From: Gemmatimonadota bacterium
Lineage (GTDB): Bacteria; Gemmatimonadota; Gemmatimonadetes; Gemmatimonadales; GWC2-71-9
DNA length: 64,000 nucleotides
NCBI GenBank assembly: GCA_039588295.1
Contig: JBDHAB010000005.1
Span: 62,395 to 126,394, forward strand
Direction of reading: 5' to 3'
Position numbers: made by a program. Positions 45,001 through 63,000 of this stretch are shown piece after piece (positions within the stretch are counted from its first letter, which is position 1; every line of letters begins with the position of its first letter).

Positions 45001-48000
45001 ATTTAGGGGAGTCAACCCCCACTCGTCCGGGCCCCGAGCGCGAGTTCACCGAGATCCTCTACCTACCCTCCAGCCTCCAACGGAAACGGGACTGCAGCTA
45101 AGCCACAGTCCCGCTCGGGTGCGCCGGACGAGCAGTGAGAAGTGTGGCGCTGTCCGACGTGTGGGTTTGCAGCGGCGTTCAGAGCCTAAGGCAACCGCCC
45201 GGCGCGGAGCCACCTAGTGCCACGTGACGCTGAGGCCACCGTGGATCACCGTTCCCAACTCCGCTCCCCCCAGGCTGTCCAGTTCATGCACGCGCACGAC
45301 GACTTGCACGAATGGGGTCAGAGAGAAGGTGTCGCCGCGTCGTAGGTCGTACCCGAGACCCACAAGAGGTGCAACGTCCTGGGCGGAGTGCTCCCCACAC
45401 CAAAAGAAGAGACCCCGATAGCTGACACCCGCCTTCAGAAACAGGTTACCACGGACTGAAGGGTAGGCTGAGCCCACGAGGGCAAGCGTTGCGAGCCCCC
45501 CGTCACCGACAAACAGCGCGTCCAATTCGCCTGCGACACGCAGTCGCGATGCGATGGCGGAGCCGACACCGATATTGAAGGAAGCACCGATGTGTTGATC
45601 GTCGTGTTGGGGAAACGTGCCGGACAGGAAGCCTACGCCCCCACCAACCCCGAACCATACCCCCGAGCGCAGCTGGTCTTGGGCGACGGCGTCAGTGAGC
45701 GGCGCGAAGATGAAGACGGCAAGAAGTGGCGCGACACGCACGAGTGCCTCCGACATGTGACTCAAGCCCAACCTGCGGGCCGTGCCCCCTGAGAACCGGA
45801 GAAGGAGATCTCAGAAACTACGAAGGAGATGGTAGGAAGGTAAGACGGTAAGAGGGTGGGGATACCATCCAACCGTTGTACAACCCTACTGCCCTCCACG
45901 TGTTCGCACACTCTTCGCACACCACAGATTTGTGATGTCGCTCCCAGTTCGGGAACGGCGTAAGTCAGCTCCCAGTGGTACCATTGGTCGTAGTGCGTCT
46001 GGACCCTTCTCCCCGATTGAAACTCGCGCCGTCCTTATGCGTATACCTTAGACCACACCTAACACCATTATCACTCAACGAGCGAGACCGTCCAATGCGC
46101 AGGTTCTTGAGGCCGCGAAGTTCACGACCGATACGATTGCCATTCGTCATTGGCATGCTGCTCGCCGCTGGGGTCGGCGGAGTTCCCAAGGCAGAAGCGC
46201 AGGCCGCTCCCGCGAACCGAACGCTCACCATTGCACAGATGAAGGCCGATCTCGAGGTCTTCCGAACGAACTTTCTGGAAGTCGACCAGGCGTATTCGGC
46301 GGAGGCACGATCGCGAGGCGAAGCGAAACTCCGGGAGCTGGAAGAACGACTGTCCCGGGTGAGTTGGGCGAAGTTCGAGTTATCGCTCGCGCAGATCGTT
46401 GCTCTGGCCGATAACGGTCACACGACCGCCTTCGCGGGGCCGCGTTCTCGGCGTTTCAATCGAGTGCCGATCCGTGTCACCCCGTTCGGCGAAGACTTTC
46501 ACGTGCTCAGGGCAACTGCGGCGCATGCAGACCTGCTCGGCGCACGAGTTGTGGCAGTGGGCGATACGCGCATCGACGAGATCCGAGACTCCGCGCGGAC
46601 GCTGGCGGGCGGCGTTGCGGCCTGGCGCGATCGCAACGCGAATTACCTCATCGAAAGCCCGGAGCAGATGCATGCACTCGGATTGATTACCGAGATGGAT
46701 GCGGTACTCTATGAATTCGAAACCGCTGCGGGCCGCCGTGTTGCACGGCGCCTCCAAGCGGAACCGGCGAACGATGACCGCGTGCGCGCGGGCGCCAGTC
46801 GATGGCTCTCCCCCGAGCTCTTCCCCGAGGAGCGGGGGACGTGGCGGGCGCTCCTGGACCCGAATCAGGTACCGTGGTCGTTGAGAGACGTCGACGAGCC
46901 GTTTCGATCCCGTGACGCAGCGGAACTCGACGCGACCATCGTCGAACTGCGACGGAACAACAATGCCCCGGGGCGTCCGATCTCCGCGGCCCTGCGTGAA
47001 CTCACAGCTGCGATCGAGGCGGGCGGTCACCAACATCTCGTGCTCGACATGCGACTGAATGGTGGGGGCGATCTCAACACGACGCGCAACTTCATGACGT
47101 CCCTCCCAGACCTCGTCCCTGGGCGCATCTTCGTCCTCATGAGTCCGTGGACGTTCTCCGCAGCCATCTCGAGCATTGGCTACCTCGAGCAAGCCGCGCC
47201 CGAGCGCGTGACGCTTGTAGGGGAAGGGCCCGGCGATCGCCTCGAGTTCTTTTCCGAAGGGGGCATCGTCACGCTGCCCAATTCCGGCGCCGTGCTGCTC
47301 AACGCGACGGAACGTCACGACTATCGAACGGGGTGTGAAGGAAAGGTGGATTGTCATGGTCCAGTCGTGCGCAATCCGATTGCTGTGCCTTCATTGGCAC
47401 CGGACATCGCGGCACCGTGGACGTTAGCGGCCTATGCTGCTGGGCGAGATCCCGGGATGGAGGCGGTAACGGCGGCTCTGCGCGATGGCCGGTAACGGCG
47501 GTTACGCTCAGGCACAAGCATGGCGGACCATGTTAGGTCGCACCAAGCGGGCCAGCACCTTGCGGGACCGCAGCTAAGCCACGGTCCCGCATGAAGATGG
47601 AGCGGATGGGATTCGACCCCACGACCCCCGGCTTGCAGCGCACGCCGAAGGGGCGCAGCCTGCGCCTCGGAAGGAGCAGCCTGTCCCTGCTAGACACCAG
47701 GGGCCGCGCAACTTGCGCCGCCCGTCTCGCCATTCACCCCGACCTGCTGAAAACCAAGTTTCCCAAGATGTCCGCGATATTTTCGCAAAGATTCTCGGAA
47801 ACTCGATAAGATGTTCGCCTGCCTTCCCTACCGTCACGCAACTGTCACTCAGGCGCAGCCAAAAGCCCCGAGCGCCGCGTGACGCTCGGGGCTCAGAGTC
47901 TGGTGTCGCGACGCCCAAGACCCGACGGACACCCCTGGTGCGAATCCTCCTTCCCGGCGCGGAGTCTATGCTGGTGCTTCGACCACCTCGAGTTCACTCT

Positions 48001-60000: not shown

Positions 60001-63000
60001 AGCTCGAGGTCGGCAACCCGGCGGAAGATCCGCTGATCACCCAATACCCGCTGCTCGCCGATGCGAGCGTGCTGGTCGAGGGAACTGTCGATGGAACGCC
60101 GTTCGCGTTCACCGCCCCGCTCGACATCGATCTCGAGCTGCTGTTCCATGCACCTAAGACATTTGTGGACGGCGAGCCGCGGCCCGTGCTGGTCGAACTG
60201 GCCATCGAAACGAGCGGCTGGTTCATGGGTGCGATCGACATGCTCGACCCGAACGACCCGGCGAATCAGTCCGCCATTGAGGGTAGTATCCAGGCTTCCC
60301 TGGAACTTCACGAGGACGACTGAAGAGGCTGGTCACTGGCACCCGCGTCCGCGACGACGTTCGGGACCTAGTGGACGGACGGTTGCTTCCGTCCTGACCA
60401 CCGCCACGAACCCAAACGTCGCGCAGCAATACAGCCAACGCCATTTCCGATAACTCCTTCAGTGTTTCTTTTAGGACAAGACCTGCAGTATTACGGTTGT
60501 CCTTCGACAAGGTTCGTCTCTCGGTTACTGTCCCAAGCAAGGGTGAGTCCACTTGGCACTGTCACATGTGCGGACCGCTGGCCGTGGCGAACTGACACAA
60601 GAAGCGCAGCATGATCAAGGGGAGGTGACGAACATGAGACAGGAGCTAATCCAAATGATAGGTGAAGGATGGGAGGTCGTCGTTGTAGGCAAGAAGCAAT
60701 TAGACGAGGGAAGACTGGAAGTCATCTTCAAGCACATGGACCTGATGAGAAGGCCAGTCGAAGGCTGGGAGGTGAAGAGTTTATATAAGTCCGAGGGAGC
60801 GATACACGCACACGTTTGCCTAGAGCTGGACGATGAGGATGATCGGTCTAGGTATTTGGAGTTCAATTCTAGGTCGGCATCCCAGCGCAGTCGAAGTGAG
60901 TACAACAAGGAACTCGCGCGGGCAAACATCGAGAACCAGATCAGGAGAAACGCAGTCCAAGGAGCCGCAGGCTTGGGCGTGTATGTTCCCTTTAACCCCA
61001 AGATTGTACCGTAGCAGGTTCACCCCACTCGGGGCTTCCACGTAGCCTGTGATCAAGGCACGACTTCAAGGGGACCGGGCGCAGAGATTGAATCGACGCC
61101 GGCGCTGTGTCCGGGCTCAGCACCGGGTGCCAGGCCCAGCCCTGAGCGTCACGCGGCGTTCGGGGCTTTCTTCTAGCTGAACCACGAGTCCAGTCCCGAG
61201 CTCGCCGTGATCGTCGGCGCAGCCCAGCTCCTGCACGAGGCCATCCGCGAGCACAGCATCGACTCCGACAATCGCTGCGCCGCCGCCTCCGTCGCGTACC
61301 ACCCCCCGACGACGCGATCGGTCCACCTGCGTGTCCCCCCAAGGCCCCCGTCCGCTTGACGTCTGCTTGACGCTGCCTGTGCAACAATGTCCCGAGCGTG
61401 GGGGAAATGTGGTGACTCGGATGCTTTGACCGATAAGCGGCGTACGTGAGTGCCCTGCACGGAGGGGAGAATACCATGCGTGCGATCATGAGAAGGAAGC
61501 AGCTTCTGCTGCTCGGCGCGGCGCTGGGCATCGCCCAGGTTGGGTGCAGCGAGGTCGCAGGTCCCGAAGCCTGGGCCGGCGGGTATCAAACTGCGACCAA
61601 GTTCGACGGTCCTGACGGCGTATGGGAAACGAGCGGCAGGCTGACCATCACCCAGGATAGTTCTGTGACGCTCAACGGCACGGCCATCATCAGTGCGGTG
61701 TTCTGGGGAGACTCGCTCGCCTGGGAGGTAGCCGCCGGGAACAGCACAAGTGCGTTTGTGGTCTTCAAGGAGTCCGACGACCGCGGGCACTACTGGGTGG
61801 CCGCCGTGGGTGAGTGCTTCACAGGCTGGATCCAGTACCCCAGCGGTGACCCTCTGGACTTCCGGGGCCTGAAGGAGTAGAGCCGCCAGGTTCGGGGAGC
61901 CCCTGACAGGCACCTACGCATCTTGACCAATGCACCGCCCGGCCTCGCGCCGGGCGCTGCGCTTTGCAGTGCTTTCTCGTTCTAGATAGCCGCAGTTCTG
62001 CTTGACGGCGCCTTGACACTATGCGCCTACGTTCGGTGCGTCCCGATTGGGAGGCGCACATGCGTACCGTCGCGCTCTTCGCGGTTCTCGTCCTCGCACC
62101 GTCCACCGACGCCATCGCGCAAGCACAGCCACTGCTGCCGGGCCAGCGAGTGCGGGTGACCGCACCCACGCTCGGTATCAACAAGCAGGTTGCCACGTTC
62201 CAAACCCTCGAGAACGACATGCTAGTTATGAGCGCTGATTCCACCATGCGATGCCCAATCGCCGCTGTGATACGGCTTGACGTGCATCGAGGGCAGAAGT
62301 CACGCATAGGCAAGGCAGCCCTCATTGGCAGTCTCGTGGGCGCTAGCGTTGGAGCAGCTGCCGGTGCGGTACTTGCTGGGCGCTGCGAGGGGAGCACATC
62401 CCACCTTGTGGGGCCAGACTGCGGGCCAGGATACATTGGAGCAGGGGCAGTTGTCGTTGGGGGAGTCGGGGCGCTGGTTGGCGTTGGCATTGGAGCACTC
62501 TCCGGCCCGACCCACAAGTGGGAGGAAATCCCGCTCAACCGCTTGCGCGTGAGCGTCGTGCCGCAGCAGGGAGGAAGGTTCGCGCTAGGGGTGTCGCTCA
62601 GGTTCTAGTAGCCAAGCACATCCGCGAAAAGGGCGCGAACACGCTGATCGTTTAACGGAAGTGGTGCTGGTGCGGCTGGACGGAACTAAGGTTCGGTCTG
62701 CATCTTCCACCGTGATGACTGCTCACGCCCGCAGCTCACCGGCTGACCGTTAGGCCGCTCCGCAAATGAGGAAACCGACCGTGGTTCCCAAAACCGTCGG
62801 CCGACAACTCGTCAACCGACTGATTCTCGGGCTCCTTGGCATCGTCTTCATCCTCTTCGCTGCCGGGGCGCTCTTGCTTGGCCTGCGCGAAGAGGCCTTT
62901 GGAGCGATTGGCCAGATCGTCACGGTCGCGGTCGCCGTGGCGTTGCTTGCTGCCGGGCTGCGCCAGATCTATCAGGCGATAGTTGGCCGCCTGCCGCGGT

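Follow-up and report, generated by a model that had tools for sequence, protein, structure and literature searches.

A REP-like, putative terminator hairpin as a possible joint between accessory genes in Gemmatimonadota

Described systems close to the hairpin

REP sequences act in mRNA stability, termination and rearrangements. The REP/BIME elements and REPINs of Proteobacteria (PMC3337134, PMC3116915) resemble the hairpin repeat found in our window (the whole 64-kb stretch of DNA analyzed) in being short GC-rich extragenic palindromes, present in tens of copies behind genes, that decay from a lineage-specific master and may serve as a recombination joint. The hairpin differs in that no RAYT accompanies it and its copies do not pair up as inverted doublets (0 close pairs); it also keeps to variable islands, where REPs are scattered over the core genome, has flanks that are not conserved between related genomes and occurs in a far lower copy number. 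With the integron attC cassettes the locus shares arrays of accessory genes that are small, unrelated and co-oriented, with a conserved palindrome after each, and single genes with the element occur in other genomes and other contexts. Unlike attC, the hairpin has neither R''/R' cores nor bulged bases nor a link to intI/attI, its modules have their own promoters and leaders, and the true attC cassettes alongside look different.

The dif (pdif) modules of Acinetobacter plasmids (PMC6449649, PMC13141974) are accessory modules placed between 28-bp 11-6-11 sites and shuffled between replicons, a comparable layout. In contrast to the sites described there, the hairpin is unlike the host dif, is chromosomal and has a strand-biased fold. 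The pdif sites alternate in orientation, whereas the hairpins studied here are directly oriented. The Correia elements and minimal mobile elements of Neisseria are likewise short repeats with promoters or terminators at the boundaries of blocks exchanged by homologous recombination, but the hairpin is much shorter and lacks terminal inverted repeats with a TA duplication; moreover, we know of no link to transformation for the hairpin system. Finally, the tycheposons, tRNA-targeting cargo islands (bioRxiv 10.1101/2020.12.28.424599), share the location of islands beside tRNA genes, the integrase remnants, the partial tRNA repeats and the variable cargo. This likeness covers the island context only and leaves the hairpin and the shared leaders unaccounted for.

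Copies, fold and position of the hairpin

Within the window, five matches were found at ≤3 mismatches (47865 and 50148 on the minus strand; 55945, 56711 and 61139 on the plus strand) versus 0 expected from 100 shuffles, and a sixth copy is degenerate (Table 1). The whole genome holds 38 loci at ≤2 mismatches, the copy number given in the earlier note, and the total rises to 52 at ≤5 mismatches, with 0 hits of the reversed-pattern control. The conserved unit of about 35–40 nt consists of CA, the 28-nt GC hairpin and TTTCGGTTG, and its left edge is sharp. The reported spread in the family was confirmed, the repeat being present in 26 of 401 genomes and 8 of 78 genera (37 copies in the relative G140, 26 in G182) with a control of 0 in all. 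The exact 28-mer was detected in 37 stretches of the species-genome collection, every one titled as a Gemmatimonadota or Gemmatimonadales MAG, and in none of the viral contigs; judged by such exact matches, the hairpin would occur only in Gemmatimonadota. The loop, previously called invariant, was not: 94 copies out of 138 retain ACGC, and across the whole set the loop positions are, by our own arithmetic, about twice as variable as the stem positions. The variants are isolated single changes, compensatory double changes being absent, and most of the listed copies in genus g35 have a loop variant of their own.

On the mRNA strand the hairpin has a 12-bp stem, a 4-nt loop and a short, weak U-rich tail. 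The fold is strand-biased: hairpin 50148 reached -30.7 kcal/mol (z -3.4) in the sense and -21.9 (z -1.0) in the antisense direction, hairpin 56711 reached -27.8 kcal/mol (z -3.9) and -20.4 (z -1.5), and two G.U pairs of the consensus become A.C on the opposite strand. The polymorphisms are without strand bias, a wobble pair being kept on the sense strand by 17 changes and on the antisense strand by 20. A simple terminator scan (45000-62500) passed one of the six window copies (61137..61175), the U-tract being weak. To judge from the sequence, the hairpin would most likely end or stabilize the upstream transcript and insulate the module from the next one.

According to a home-made, crude codon-bias gene caller, 51 of the 52 hairpins lie between gene calls, and 41 have a co-oriented gene within 400 nt upstream (median distance about 61 nt, counted by hand), so that the placement behind co-oriented, mostly small accessory genes claimed before stood up. 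By our own counts, a co-oriented gene is present only downstream at about 4 hairpins, and the downstream gene is not co-oriented at 17. The cargo genes are shorter than the genome-wide median (177 aa vs 276 aa), and their products are more often signal-peptide-like (21 of 41 vs 27%) or provided with a lipobox (11 of 41 vs 6%). Nearly all hairpins (48 of 52) lie within 10 kb of a contig end, a zone that holds 39% of the genome, and the G+C content of the hairpin-bearing regions is 61.8% vs 64.2%.

Homology breaks and connector blocks

The hairpin often stands where homology between related genomes breaks, so genes reassort there, with recombination as the inferred cause. Breakpoints are enriched at the hairpin: of 41 internal alignment ends, 9 fall no more than 25 nt from a hairpin, a zone making up 1.8% of the sequence, which amounts to about 12-fold enrichment over a baseline given by the share of the whole sequence. 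The other 32 ends (78%) lie away from hairpins, which makes the hairpin just one of several joints; the leader/ORF boundary is another, as read from one comparison. Among 19 cross-genome pairs of the same genus with a common left flank as far as the hairpin, the right flank is shared in 2 and unrelated in 17. The unit 49489-50176 matches contig C109 of G140 at 91% identity, as compared with 75–85% for the NmrA gene in the compared same-genus genomes; the homology begins exactly at the first base (5' edge) of hairpin 50148, crosses the degenerate hairpin and disappears no more than about 40 nt past it. Many different flanks adjoin 50142-50146 and 50176 at hairpin 50148 in metagenome contigs. 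G182 and G140 have in common a cassette, at 98% identity, that also starts at a hairpin, and some shared cassettes stop short of the next hairpin, at unequal distances in the two genomes. In this genome the left flank is unique at 46 of 52 hairpins, hence the unit was copied or joined many times; the right flank is unique at 28, and the remaining right flanks form 9 families. A pair of paralogous loci in G035 aligns on both sides, with a hairpin-bearing segment of about 60 nt in place of an unrelated 32 nt, which is a replacement and not a clean insertion. None of the 135 hairpins tested locally had a target-site duplication or a clean empty site, and the search for mobility machinery revealed no recombinase or other enzyme moving the hairpin. 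The earlier reading as a mobile or recombining module is supported in part.

The zinc-ribbon mini-gene (Z) block gave 23 blastn hits and 20 translated matches in the genome, in agreement with the roughly 20 loci reported, and four copies (C53, C40, C74 and C124) are full-length and stop-free where 3–4 intact ones had been claimed. The bias between its codon positions reveals a present or former coding function. The earlier note combined mini-gene, divergent promoter, cargo and hairpin into one module. The divergent arrangement holds for 11 of the 15 copies that have a promoter, their mini-gene pointing away from the cargo gene, but cargo and hairpin together are found at just 5 of these 15 promoters, and 52 hairpins stand against about 20 mini-gene blocks. 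One complete four-part module is formed in the window by the Z block at 52060..52206 and the divergent 569-aa cargo gene ending in hairpin 50148. Four of 43 mini-gene blocks adjoin integrases that are truncated or decayed, each beside a different tRNA gene, which points to tRNA-integrating islands in the context and away from a self-contained new element.

A second terminator-like hairpin, T2hp, at other loci closes the mini-gene or stands immediately before the main hairpin (in about 11 of the 52 printed flanks, by eye); the two fold together at -59.9 kcal/mol. The C_blk alignment, made of 39 copies from the window and from loci of this genome, G140, G182, G087 and a few other genomes, had no Rfam match at E≤1 and no consensus fold. 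G_blk is the divergent side of the shared Z promoter block. Of the genes at the left end of the stretch compared, only NmrA has homologs in four same-genus genomes, and the variable region lies right of the Z remnant. The first tRNA-Ala fragment looks like the attachment-site repeat that an element integrated long ago would leave; the second matches G013 and G087 at about 98% identity over 44 nt, and the other three same-genus genomes at 92–98% over 43–49 nt.

Table 1. Features of the right part of the window.
Feature	Position	Strand	Remarks
Z block remnant	45113..45211	+	mini-gene 3' part and decayed T2hp terminator; adjoins NmrA gene
tRNA-Ala(TGC) 3'-half fragment	47597..47637		97.5% identical to part of intact gene on contig C7
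Hairpin unit, 1 mismatch	47856..47893	-	G-C variant at pair 8-21; behind radical-SAM gene
Three cargo genes in one run	47966..51896	-	hairpin after each
Radical SAM, 436 aa	47966-49276	-	cargo
C_blk	49319..49492	-	promoter-like stretch and ~75-nt conserved 5'-UTR core before radical-SAM gene
Degenerate hairpin, 4 mismatches	49493..49520	-	behind 157-aa gene; C_blk leader of radical-SAM gene directly next
Unknown protein, 157 aa	49549-50022	-	cargo
Hairpin unit, exact	50139..50176	-	28-mer 50148-50175 and tail; behind 569-aa Big_2/PQQ gene, before leader of 157-aa gene
Big_2/PQQ, 569 aa	50187-51896	-	cargo
Z block	52060..52206	+	tandem TTGAC boxes, GGAGG site, zinc-ribbon mini-ORF truncated by stop after 32 codons
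Second tRNA-Ala 3' fragment	52947..52998		adjoins terminase-small-subunit-like gene (53209-53655)
Z block, second copy	55021..55239	-	mini-ORF ends at stop after 30 codons
Hairpin unit, 1 mismatch	55945..55981	+	without co-oriented upstream gene; followed by G_blk leader and SnoaL gene
G_blk leader	55985..56075	+	before SnoaL gene; reverse complement of region upstream of Z promoter
SnoaL-like protein, 176 aa	56136..56666	+	cargo between hairpins 55945 and 56711
Hairpin unit, exact	56711..56747	+	behind SnoaL-like gene
Relics adjoining hairpin 56711	56740..57070	-	56740-56831, 3' end of gene resembling C7:224711-225226; 56888-57070, 60-aa piece of IS91-type Y2 transposase, sole Y2_Tnp match in genome
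Hairpin unit, 1 mismatch	61137..61175	+	behind 126-aa gene
T2hp, second conserved terminator-like hairpin (CGCCCGGC-loop-GCCGGGCG)	61934..61958	+	alone behind lectin-like gene
Canonical integron cassettes	62640..63900	+	attC ends GTTAGGC at 62749-62755 and 63208-63214; GCCTAAC start at 63864 (by eye)

Possible origins of the arrangement

The explanation we favor, to which we give about an even chance, is that self-expressing accessory genes are linked to one another by a REP-like terminator repeat plus a few other conserved connector blocks, and that these elements double as recombination joints. The right third of the window would then be a mosaic accessory island of unrelated, mostly small genes, many with secretion signals, each probably a self-contained expression unit. 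The connector blocks would comprise the 35–40-nt terminator-like hairpin unit, T2hp, the bidirectional Z promoter block with its 50-aa zinc-ribbon gene and the C_blk 5'-UTR of about 75 nt; conserved promoter/leader blocks do stand before cargo genes. The hairpin itself would behave as a REP-type repeat with a lineage-specific master and tens of independently decaying copies. Since one short sequence, often followed by a recurring leader, stands between many unrelated genes, it may provide a joint for the exchange, loss and re-joining of modules within and between genomes, probably through ordinary homologous or short-homology recombination without a dedicated enzyme. Against this explanation it counts that homologous recombination alone cannot attach the hairpin to a new gene, and that a REP-like repeat without a RAYT is left unexplained. 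The weak U-tract, the polymorphisms lacking strand bias, the 32 alignment ends away from hairpins and the failure to find a clean empty site speak against it as well.

A very good terminator that rides on horizontally moving accessory genes, without any role in recombination and with breakpoints reflecting its intergenic location, would fit the position and fold of the hairpin, the 32 breakpoints found elsewhere, the lower G+C content and the failure to find an enzyme. This is nevertheless unlikely, as unrelated genes cannot each inherit the same 40 nt, the end enrichment (on the whole-sequence baseline) and the homology starting from the first hairpin base would exceed the generic intergenic expectation, and the lineage-specific master variant in g35 implies ongoing copying or homogenization. 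The 11-6-11 layout visible in the sequence also permits the 28-mer to be read as a duplex core site of a tyrosine recombinase, with near-symmetric 11-bp arms around an asymmetric 6-bp center, at which modules would be excised as circles and reinserted, forming a second, promoter-bearing cassette system beside the integron. The constant orientation relative to genes, the arrays of directly repeated copies, the hairpin-bounded units at 91–98% identity in different contexts and the catalytic-domain-only tyrosine recombinase ORFs beside Z blocks at island edges (catalytic residues complete by eye in the C93 copy) agree with such a site. However, the two arm differences are exactly G.U-compatible and the T-rich tail is one-sided, which suits an RNA hairpin better; the center is more variable than the arms, no recombinase lies consistently near the hairpin arrays, and the hairpin bears no likeness to the host dif, of which there is one canonical, AT-rich copy. 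Together with the share of alignment ends away from hairpins and the cassettes ending before the next hairpin, at distances differing between genomes, this makes a recombinase site quite improbable.

Single-strand (HUH) transposition, with the hairpin as its end or target (terIS/oriIS of the IS91/ISCR type or a palindrome of the IS200/IS605 kind), is brought to mind by the Y2 transposase relic 150 nt from hairpin 56711, by truncated genes adjoining hairpins at several loci and by one Y1 homolog in the genome. We regard it as very improbable: Y2_Tnp is represented here by that single 60-aa relic and is absent from the hairpin-rich G140 and G182, and the left edge of the hairpin shows no conserved tetranucleotide that could serve as a target. 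The sole Y1 homolog is single-copy and has no adjacent hairpins; its HUH motif, read by eye as HVR, is presumably lost. That the resident integron integrase uses the hairpin as an atypical attC site is already largely refuted and hardly credible, even though the genome has intI, true attC cassettes of the window lie next to hairpin modules, and integron contigs break after 0–2 cassettes, so that the arrays are unassembled. The R''/R' core motifs are absent around the hairpin, the stem is perfect without bulged bases, the GTTAGGC-type core is missing from the hairpin-rich contigs C73, C93, C99 and C74, the modules carry their own promoters, and G182, with its 26 hairpins and a completeness of 93%, has no intI above the cut-off. 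The distinction from attC drawn earlier is upheld by the canonical cassettes in the same window, which are a contrast to the hairpin system and lie outside it, and by intI and attI lying on another contig.

An IS-like ORF starts at about 63.94 kb (by eye), and the last 140 nt recur on contigs C7 and C70.

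Copies, unit and fold of the hairpin repeat

In the window, which spans C5:62395-126394, the hairpin, a GC-rich 28-mer repeat with a short tail, matched five times at ≤3 mismatches versus no matches in 100 shuffles, and a sixth, degenerate copy was located at 49493-49520. In the whole genome under study (G000), 52 loci were detected at ≤5 mismatches and none with the reversed-pattern control, so the repeat, taken for a real element in the earlier note, stands far above chance. The 38 copies claimed there for ≤5 mismatches were reproduced at ≤2 mismatches, the looser limit giving the 52 loci. 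The information profile of all copies defined a unit of about 35–40 nt (CA + 28-mer + TTTCGGTTG) with a sharp left edge; outside CA on the left and TTTCGGTTG on the right, the consensus of the flanks was uninformative. The same 35–40-nt unit was recovered again from the contigs of two metagenome runs, whose matches to the window ended at 50142-50146 and 50176, with many differing continuations.

According to gene calls from a home-made codon-bias caller, 51 of the 52 hairpins lie between genes, and a co-oriented gene is present ≤400 nt upstream of 41 of them. The G+C content around the hairpins was 61.8% vs. 64.2%. As many as 48 of 52 are placed ≤10 kb from a contig end, compared with 39% of the genome; hence, the hairpin appears to break short-read assemblies. 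It was present in 26 of the 401 family genomes and 8 of 78 genera (control 0 in all), with 20, 26 and 37 copies in same-genus genomes. The exact 28-mer gave 37 matches in a collection of one genome per prokaryote species, all in metagenome-assembled genomes (MAGs) of Gemmatimonadota, and none in viral contigs. The hairpin may serve as a practical marker of variable islands in such MAGs.

On the sense strand, i.e., that of the upstream gene, the repeat folds into a 12-bp stem with a 4-nt loop and no bulges (−27.8 to −30.7 kcal/mol, z −3.4 to −3.9), whereas the antisense fold is weaker (−20.4 to −21.9 kcal/mol, z −1.0 to −1.5) because two G.U pairs turn into A.C. The survey of 138 distinct copies from G000 and the fetched loci revealed scattered single changes (56 mismatches, 34 to a Watson–Crick pair, 28 of the latter being G.T to G-C at pair 8–21) and no compensatory double changes in the stem. 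Changes leaving a wobble on the sense strand numbered 17 vs. 20 on the antisense strand; the polymorphisms are without strand bias. The loop reads ACGC in 94 of 138 copies and is therefore not invariant, contrary to what had been stated. Most of the listed copies from genus g35 carry a loop variant of their own, which looks like a lineage-specific master copy.

Zinc-ribbon mini-genes and integrase loci

As read from the alignment, the Z block (shared promoter plus zinc-ribbon mini-gene) spans about 300 nt and comprises tandem TTGAC boxes, a GGAGG site, a 50-aa four-Cys ORF and the terminator T2hp, a second terminator-like hairpin. Translated matches to the zinc ribbon numbered 20 in G000 and five, six, one and one in the comparison genomes G182, G140, G087 and G269, respectively. 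Four of the 20 were full-length without stops, which agrees with the three to four intact copies reported previously. Among 34 copies, 15 contained indels, and the differences at codon positions 1, 2 and 3 amounted to 10.4%, 13.3% and 27.3%, a skew indicating that the ORF is, or was, a coding gene. Only nine relatives of the protein, all 61–87% identical, were found among 5.8 billion proteins, and no Pfam family exceeded its cut-off (best HVO_2753_ZBP, E 0.007, 16.6 vs. 33.2 bits required).

The region upstream of the Z promoter is the reverse complement of a leader running into C_blk, a conserved 5'-UTR block, and a cargo gene, as the accessory genes beside leaders and hairpins are called here. 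The four-part module proposed earlier (mini-gene, divergent promoter, cargo and hairpin) was the exception: a divergent gene was present ≤600 nt from 11 of the 15 promoter-bearing Z copies, but such a gene ended in a hairpin at only five of the 15.

At four of 43 Z copies, a truncated or decayed tyrosine integrase in the same orientation follows immediately downstream and abuts a tRNA gene (for Leu, Pro or Ile in G000 and for Gln in G140). By our own reading, the recombinase on contig C93 has kept all catalytic residues in about 160 aa. The window also contains two tRNA-Ala 3' fragments and a terminase-like gene; together with the Z–integrase–tRNA loci, they indicate that the islands are partly built from tRNA-integrating elements.

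Coordinates of module, recombinase, leader and integron features
Feature	Position	Strand	Remarks
Complete module (Z block, divergent cargo, hairpin)	window 50148-52206		sole one in window
Z block 5' of N-truncated/decayed tyrosine recombinase and tRNA gene	C93:233-905; C40:2778-3518; C74:4813-6078; G140:C35:51942-52719		
Y1 homolog (PF01797)	window 18029-18364 = C5:80423-80758		single copy, 162 aa, IS200-type
C_blk leader block	window 49319-49420	-	38 further copies in window and loci of G000, G140, G182, G087 and a few other genomes
intI and attI stretches	C3:1-1721; G140:C44:1-1338; G087:C25:93772-95567; G119:C390:1-1411		intI of G000 at C3:777-1721
Textbook attC	C36:43738-43811		GCCTAAC/GTTAGGC

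Homology breaks at the hairpins and their reading

Four same-genus genomes share with the compared stretch only the NmrA gene at its left end (75–85% identity), with different neighbours in each, so that an empty site of the island was not definable. G140:C109 matches window 49489-50176, a unit of hairpin, leader, 157-aa gene and second hairpin, at 91% identity; the homology begins at base 1 of the upstream hairpin and disappears no more than about 40 nt beyond the downstream one. Cassettes of a 16-kb array in G182 were 92–98% identical to those of G140, G000 and G087, where they occupy other neighbourhoods; some joints of this array fall at the leader/ORF boundary, and some shared cassettes end short of the next hairpin.

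The 150-nt flanks of 135 hairpins from G000 and fetched loci (mainly G140, G182, G087 and G013) were compared. The left flank up to the hairpin was common to 19 cross-genome pairs, two of which (one reciprocal pair) also shared the right flank, and the right flank was common to 263 pairs, mostly through repeated leaders, one of which also shared the left flank. Within G000, the left flanks were unique at 46 of 52 hairpins and the right flanks at 28, the non-unique right flanks forming nine families. Among alignments of ≥80% identity and ≥250 nt, 9 of the 41 internal ends fell ≤25 nt from a hairpin, a zone making up 1.8% of the sequence, and 32 fell elsewhere. In the two metagenome DNA runs that covered part of the stretch (assembled contigs of low depth), one side of each apparent joint was short, 24–33 nt, and fell at a repeat.

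The empty sites and target-site duplications not looked for in the earlier note were now sought and did not appear: the local flank test found no hairpin-free version of the site for any of the 135 hairpins. A pair of paralogous loci in the closed genome G035 can be aligned to the left and right of a hairpin segment of about 60 nt that stands in place of unrelated 32 nt, i.e., a replacement without duplication. The hairpin differs in these respects from a MITE, defined by terminal inverted repeats and a target-site duplication, with filled and empty sites. The T2hp at window 61.96 kb and its counterpart on C99 were not counted as a hairpin-free pair, as the aligner had misplaced the blocks; by eye, there may be 4 nt where the 28-mer stands elsewhere.

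The best-supported reading, to which we give an about even chance, is that the hairpin acts as a terminator repeat of the REP-like kind; together with a small set of further conserved connector blocks, it would wire self-expressing accessory genes and provide joints for their exchange. It resembles REP/REPIN elements as a short extragenic palindrome in many copies. RAYT, a Y1 HUH transposase, is a single-copy gene flanked by REPs, whereas no hairpins were found beside the sole PF01797 match; REPINs form inverted pairs at vertically inherited positions, whereas no hairpin pairs closer than 300 nt were detected and the right flank was kept in only 2 of 19 cases. We consider it rather unlikely that the hairpin is a plain terminator that hitch-hikes with its genes. 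Of the traits of an intrinsic (Rho-independent) terminator, the hairpin shows the GC-rich stem and the position behind a co-oriented gene; the U-tract of its tail UUUCGGUUG is weak, and only one of the six window copies passed a simple terminator scan. T2hp was seen by eye directly 5' of the hairpin in about 11 of the 52 printed flanks, and the two folded jointly reached −59.9 kcal/mol. Somewhat more doubtful still is a true site-specific cassette site of 11-6-11 layout, with which Gemmatimonadota would have a second cassette system independent of integrons. The direct repeats would then, improbably in our estimate, let a tyrosine recombinase excise and reinsert single promoter-bearing modules; the short catalytic-domain-only recombinases behind zinc-ribbon genes at island edges are candidate enzymes, and the zinc-ribbon protein is a possible separate DNA-binding partner. 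The dif/pdif sites, 28-bp sequences like the host dif and bound by XerC/XerD, differ from the hairpin: the one dif-like site in the genome is canonical, AT-rich and unlike it (C18:46590-46617).

The end of an HUH element is largely excluded and would come as a surprise. The Y1 homolog sits in a 2-oxoacid dehydrogenase operon, between the genes for E2 and E1-beta; its HUH motif, read by eye as HVR, appears lost, and the homolog looks domesticated or dead. A Y2 (IS91-type) transposase, expected in the same genome for an IS91/ISCR element, gave no matches in G140 and G182 and one 60-aa relic in G000. An attC variant is likewise largely excluded and is the least probable reading. The outer cores of attC, RYYYAAC ... 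GTTRRRY, are mutually complementary; no attC-type core pair flanked the hairpin at any copy, and no extrahelical bases, as in attC, interrupt its stem. True attC sites occur in the same window at 62.6–63.9 kb, the last 1.4 kb containing cassettes that end in GTTAGGC, and the distinction drawn in the earlier note was thus upheld. Contigs C73, C93, C99 and C74, rich in hairpins or mini-gene blocks, had no attC core motif. The strict fold-based attC finder gave no output, missed the C36 site too and was dropped as too strict. In G000, intI is followed downstream by the attI core and a first cassette in its own direction, and the contig stops in the first attC. All four integrons share this arrangement, with the attI core 240–500 nt past the intI stop; their contigs end within 0–2 cassettes, and no hairpin was found beside intI/attI up to the contig end. 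No intI exceeded the cut-off in G182.

Soils and sediments commonly contain Gemmatimonadota; to our knowledge, little is known about the way their accessory genomes are built. In the present case, many small genes with no relation to one another, a good number of them bearing secretion signals, use the same few promoter, leader and terminator blocks, and related genomes differ by whole modules joined at shared blocks. The architecture would be of a plug-and-play kind, every cassette having expression signals of its own; integron cassettes are generally described as promoterless. Joints made by an enzyme would mean a new cassette system; with joints from ordinary recombination, the hairpin would be a clear example of gene flux organised by short regulatory repeats. 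Among the best 10 of 73 literature matches listed, none linked Gemmatimonad* with REP, REPIN or RAYT; the integron matches listed were general integron papers only, and no description of the hairpin element was found in the matches seen.

Cargo and further conserved blocks

The cargo proteins were shorter than the genome average and bore signals more often. Eight are of the SnoaL/DUF4440 type (own count from two Pfam tables); LRR and PD40 proteins, kinases, lectin-like proteins, metallo-beta-lactamase folds and a cytochrome c peroxidase were also present, and many had no family match.

C_blk is a near-invariant block of about 75 nt with GACGCC/GACGACG repeats and a GGCC..GGCC mini-hairpin, placed, by eye, about 45–60 nt before the start codon of unrelated genes. 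It was found behind at least three different promoter-like contexts, and several of its genes begin with similar lipoprotein-like signal peptides. No Rfam match was obtained. C_blk was rejected as a structured RNA, with RNAalifold giving −2.9 kcal/mol and four pairs and the single-sequence folds being mutually inconsistent.

A 150-nt block upstream of a 203-aa gene (window 59528-59682) is 89–90% identical at three other G000 loci and 92% in G140; in the metagenome contigs, its word depth was 43–60x vs. 1–5x around it. A 40-nt block with the inverted repeat CACAC..GTGTG (window 45899-45941; C43:17345, C72:620, C117:185) stands directly 3' of hairpins as one of the right-flank families and has an operator-like look. 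Another repeat, 95–96% identical on three contigs (window 63860-64000, C7:1440-1580, C70:11962-12096), begins within the GCCTAAC-type start of an attC, forms the opening of an IS3-like transposase ORF (by eye) and ends the contig; it may be an insertion sequence in attC. Finally, a protein of 679 aa is encoded on the minus strand of window 57086-59125. Its SLC4-type bicarbonate-transporter membrane domain is complete (E 1e-183) and follows Band-3-cytoplasmic and PTS-EIIA-like domains; the predicted architecture is that of a eukaryote-type anion exchanger, here in a bacterial island.
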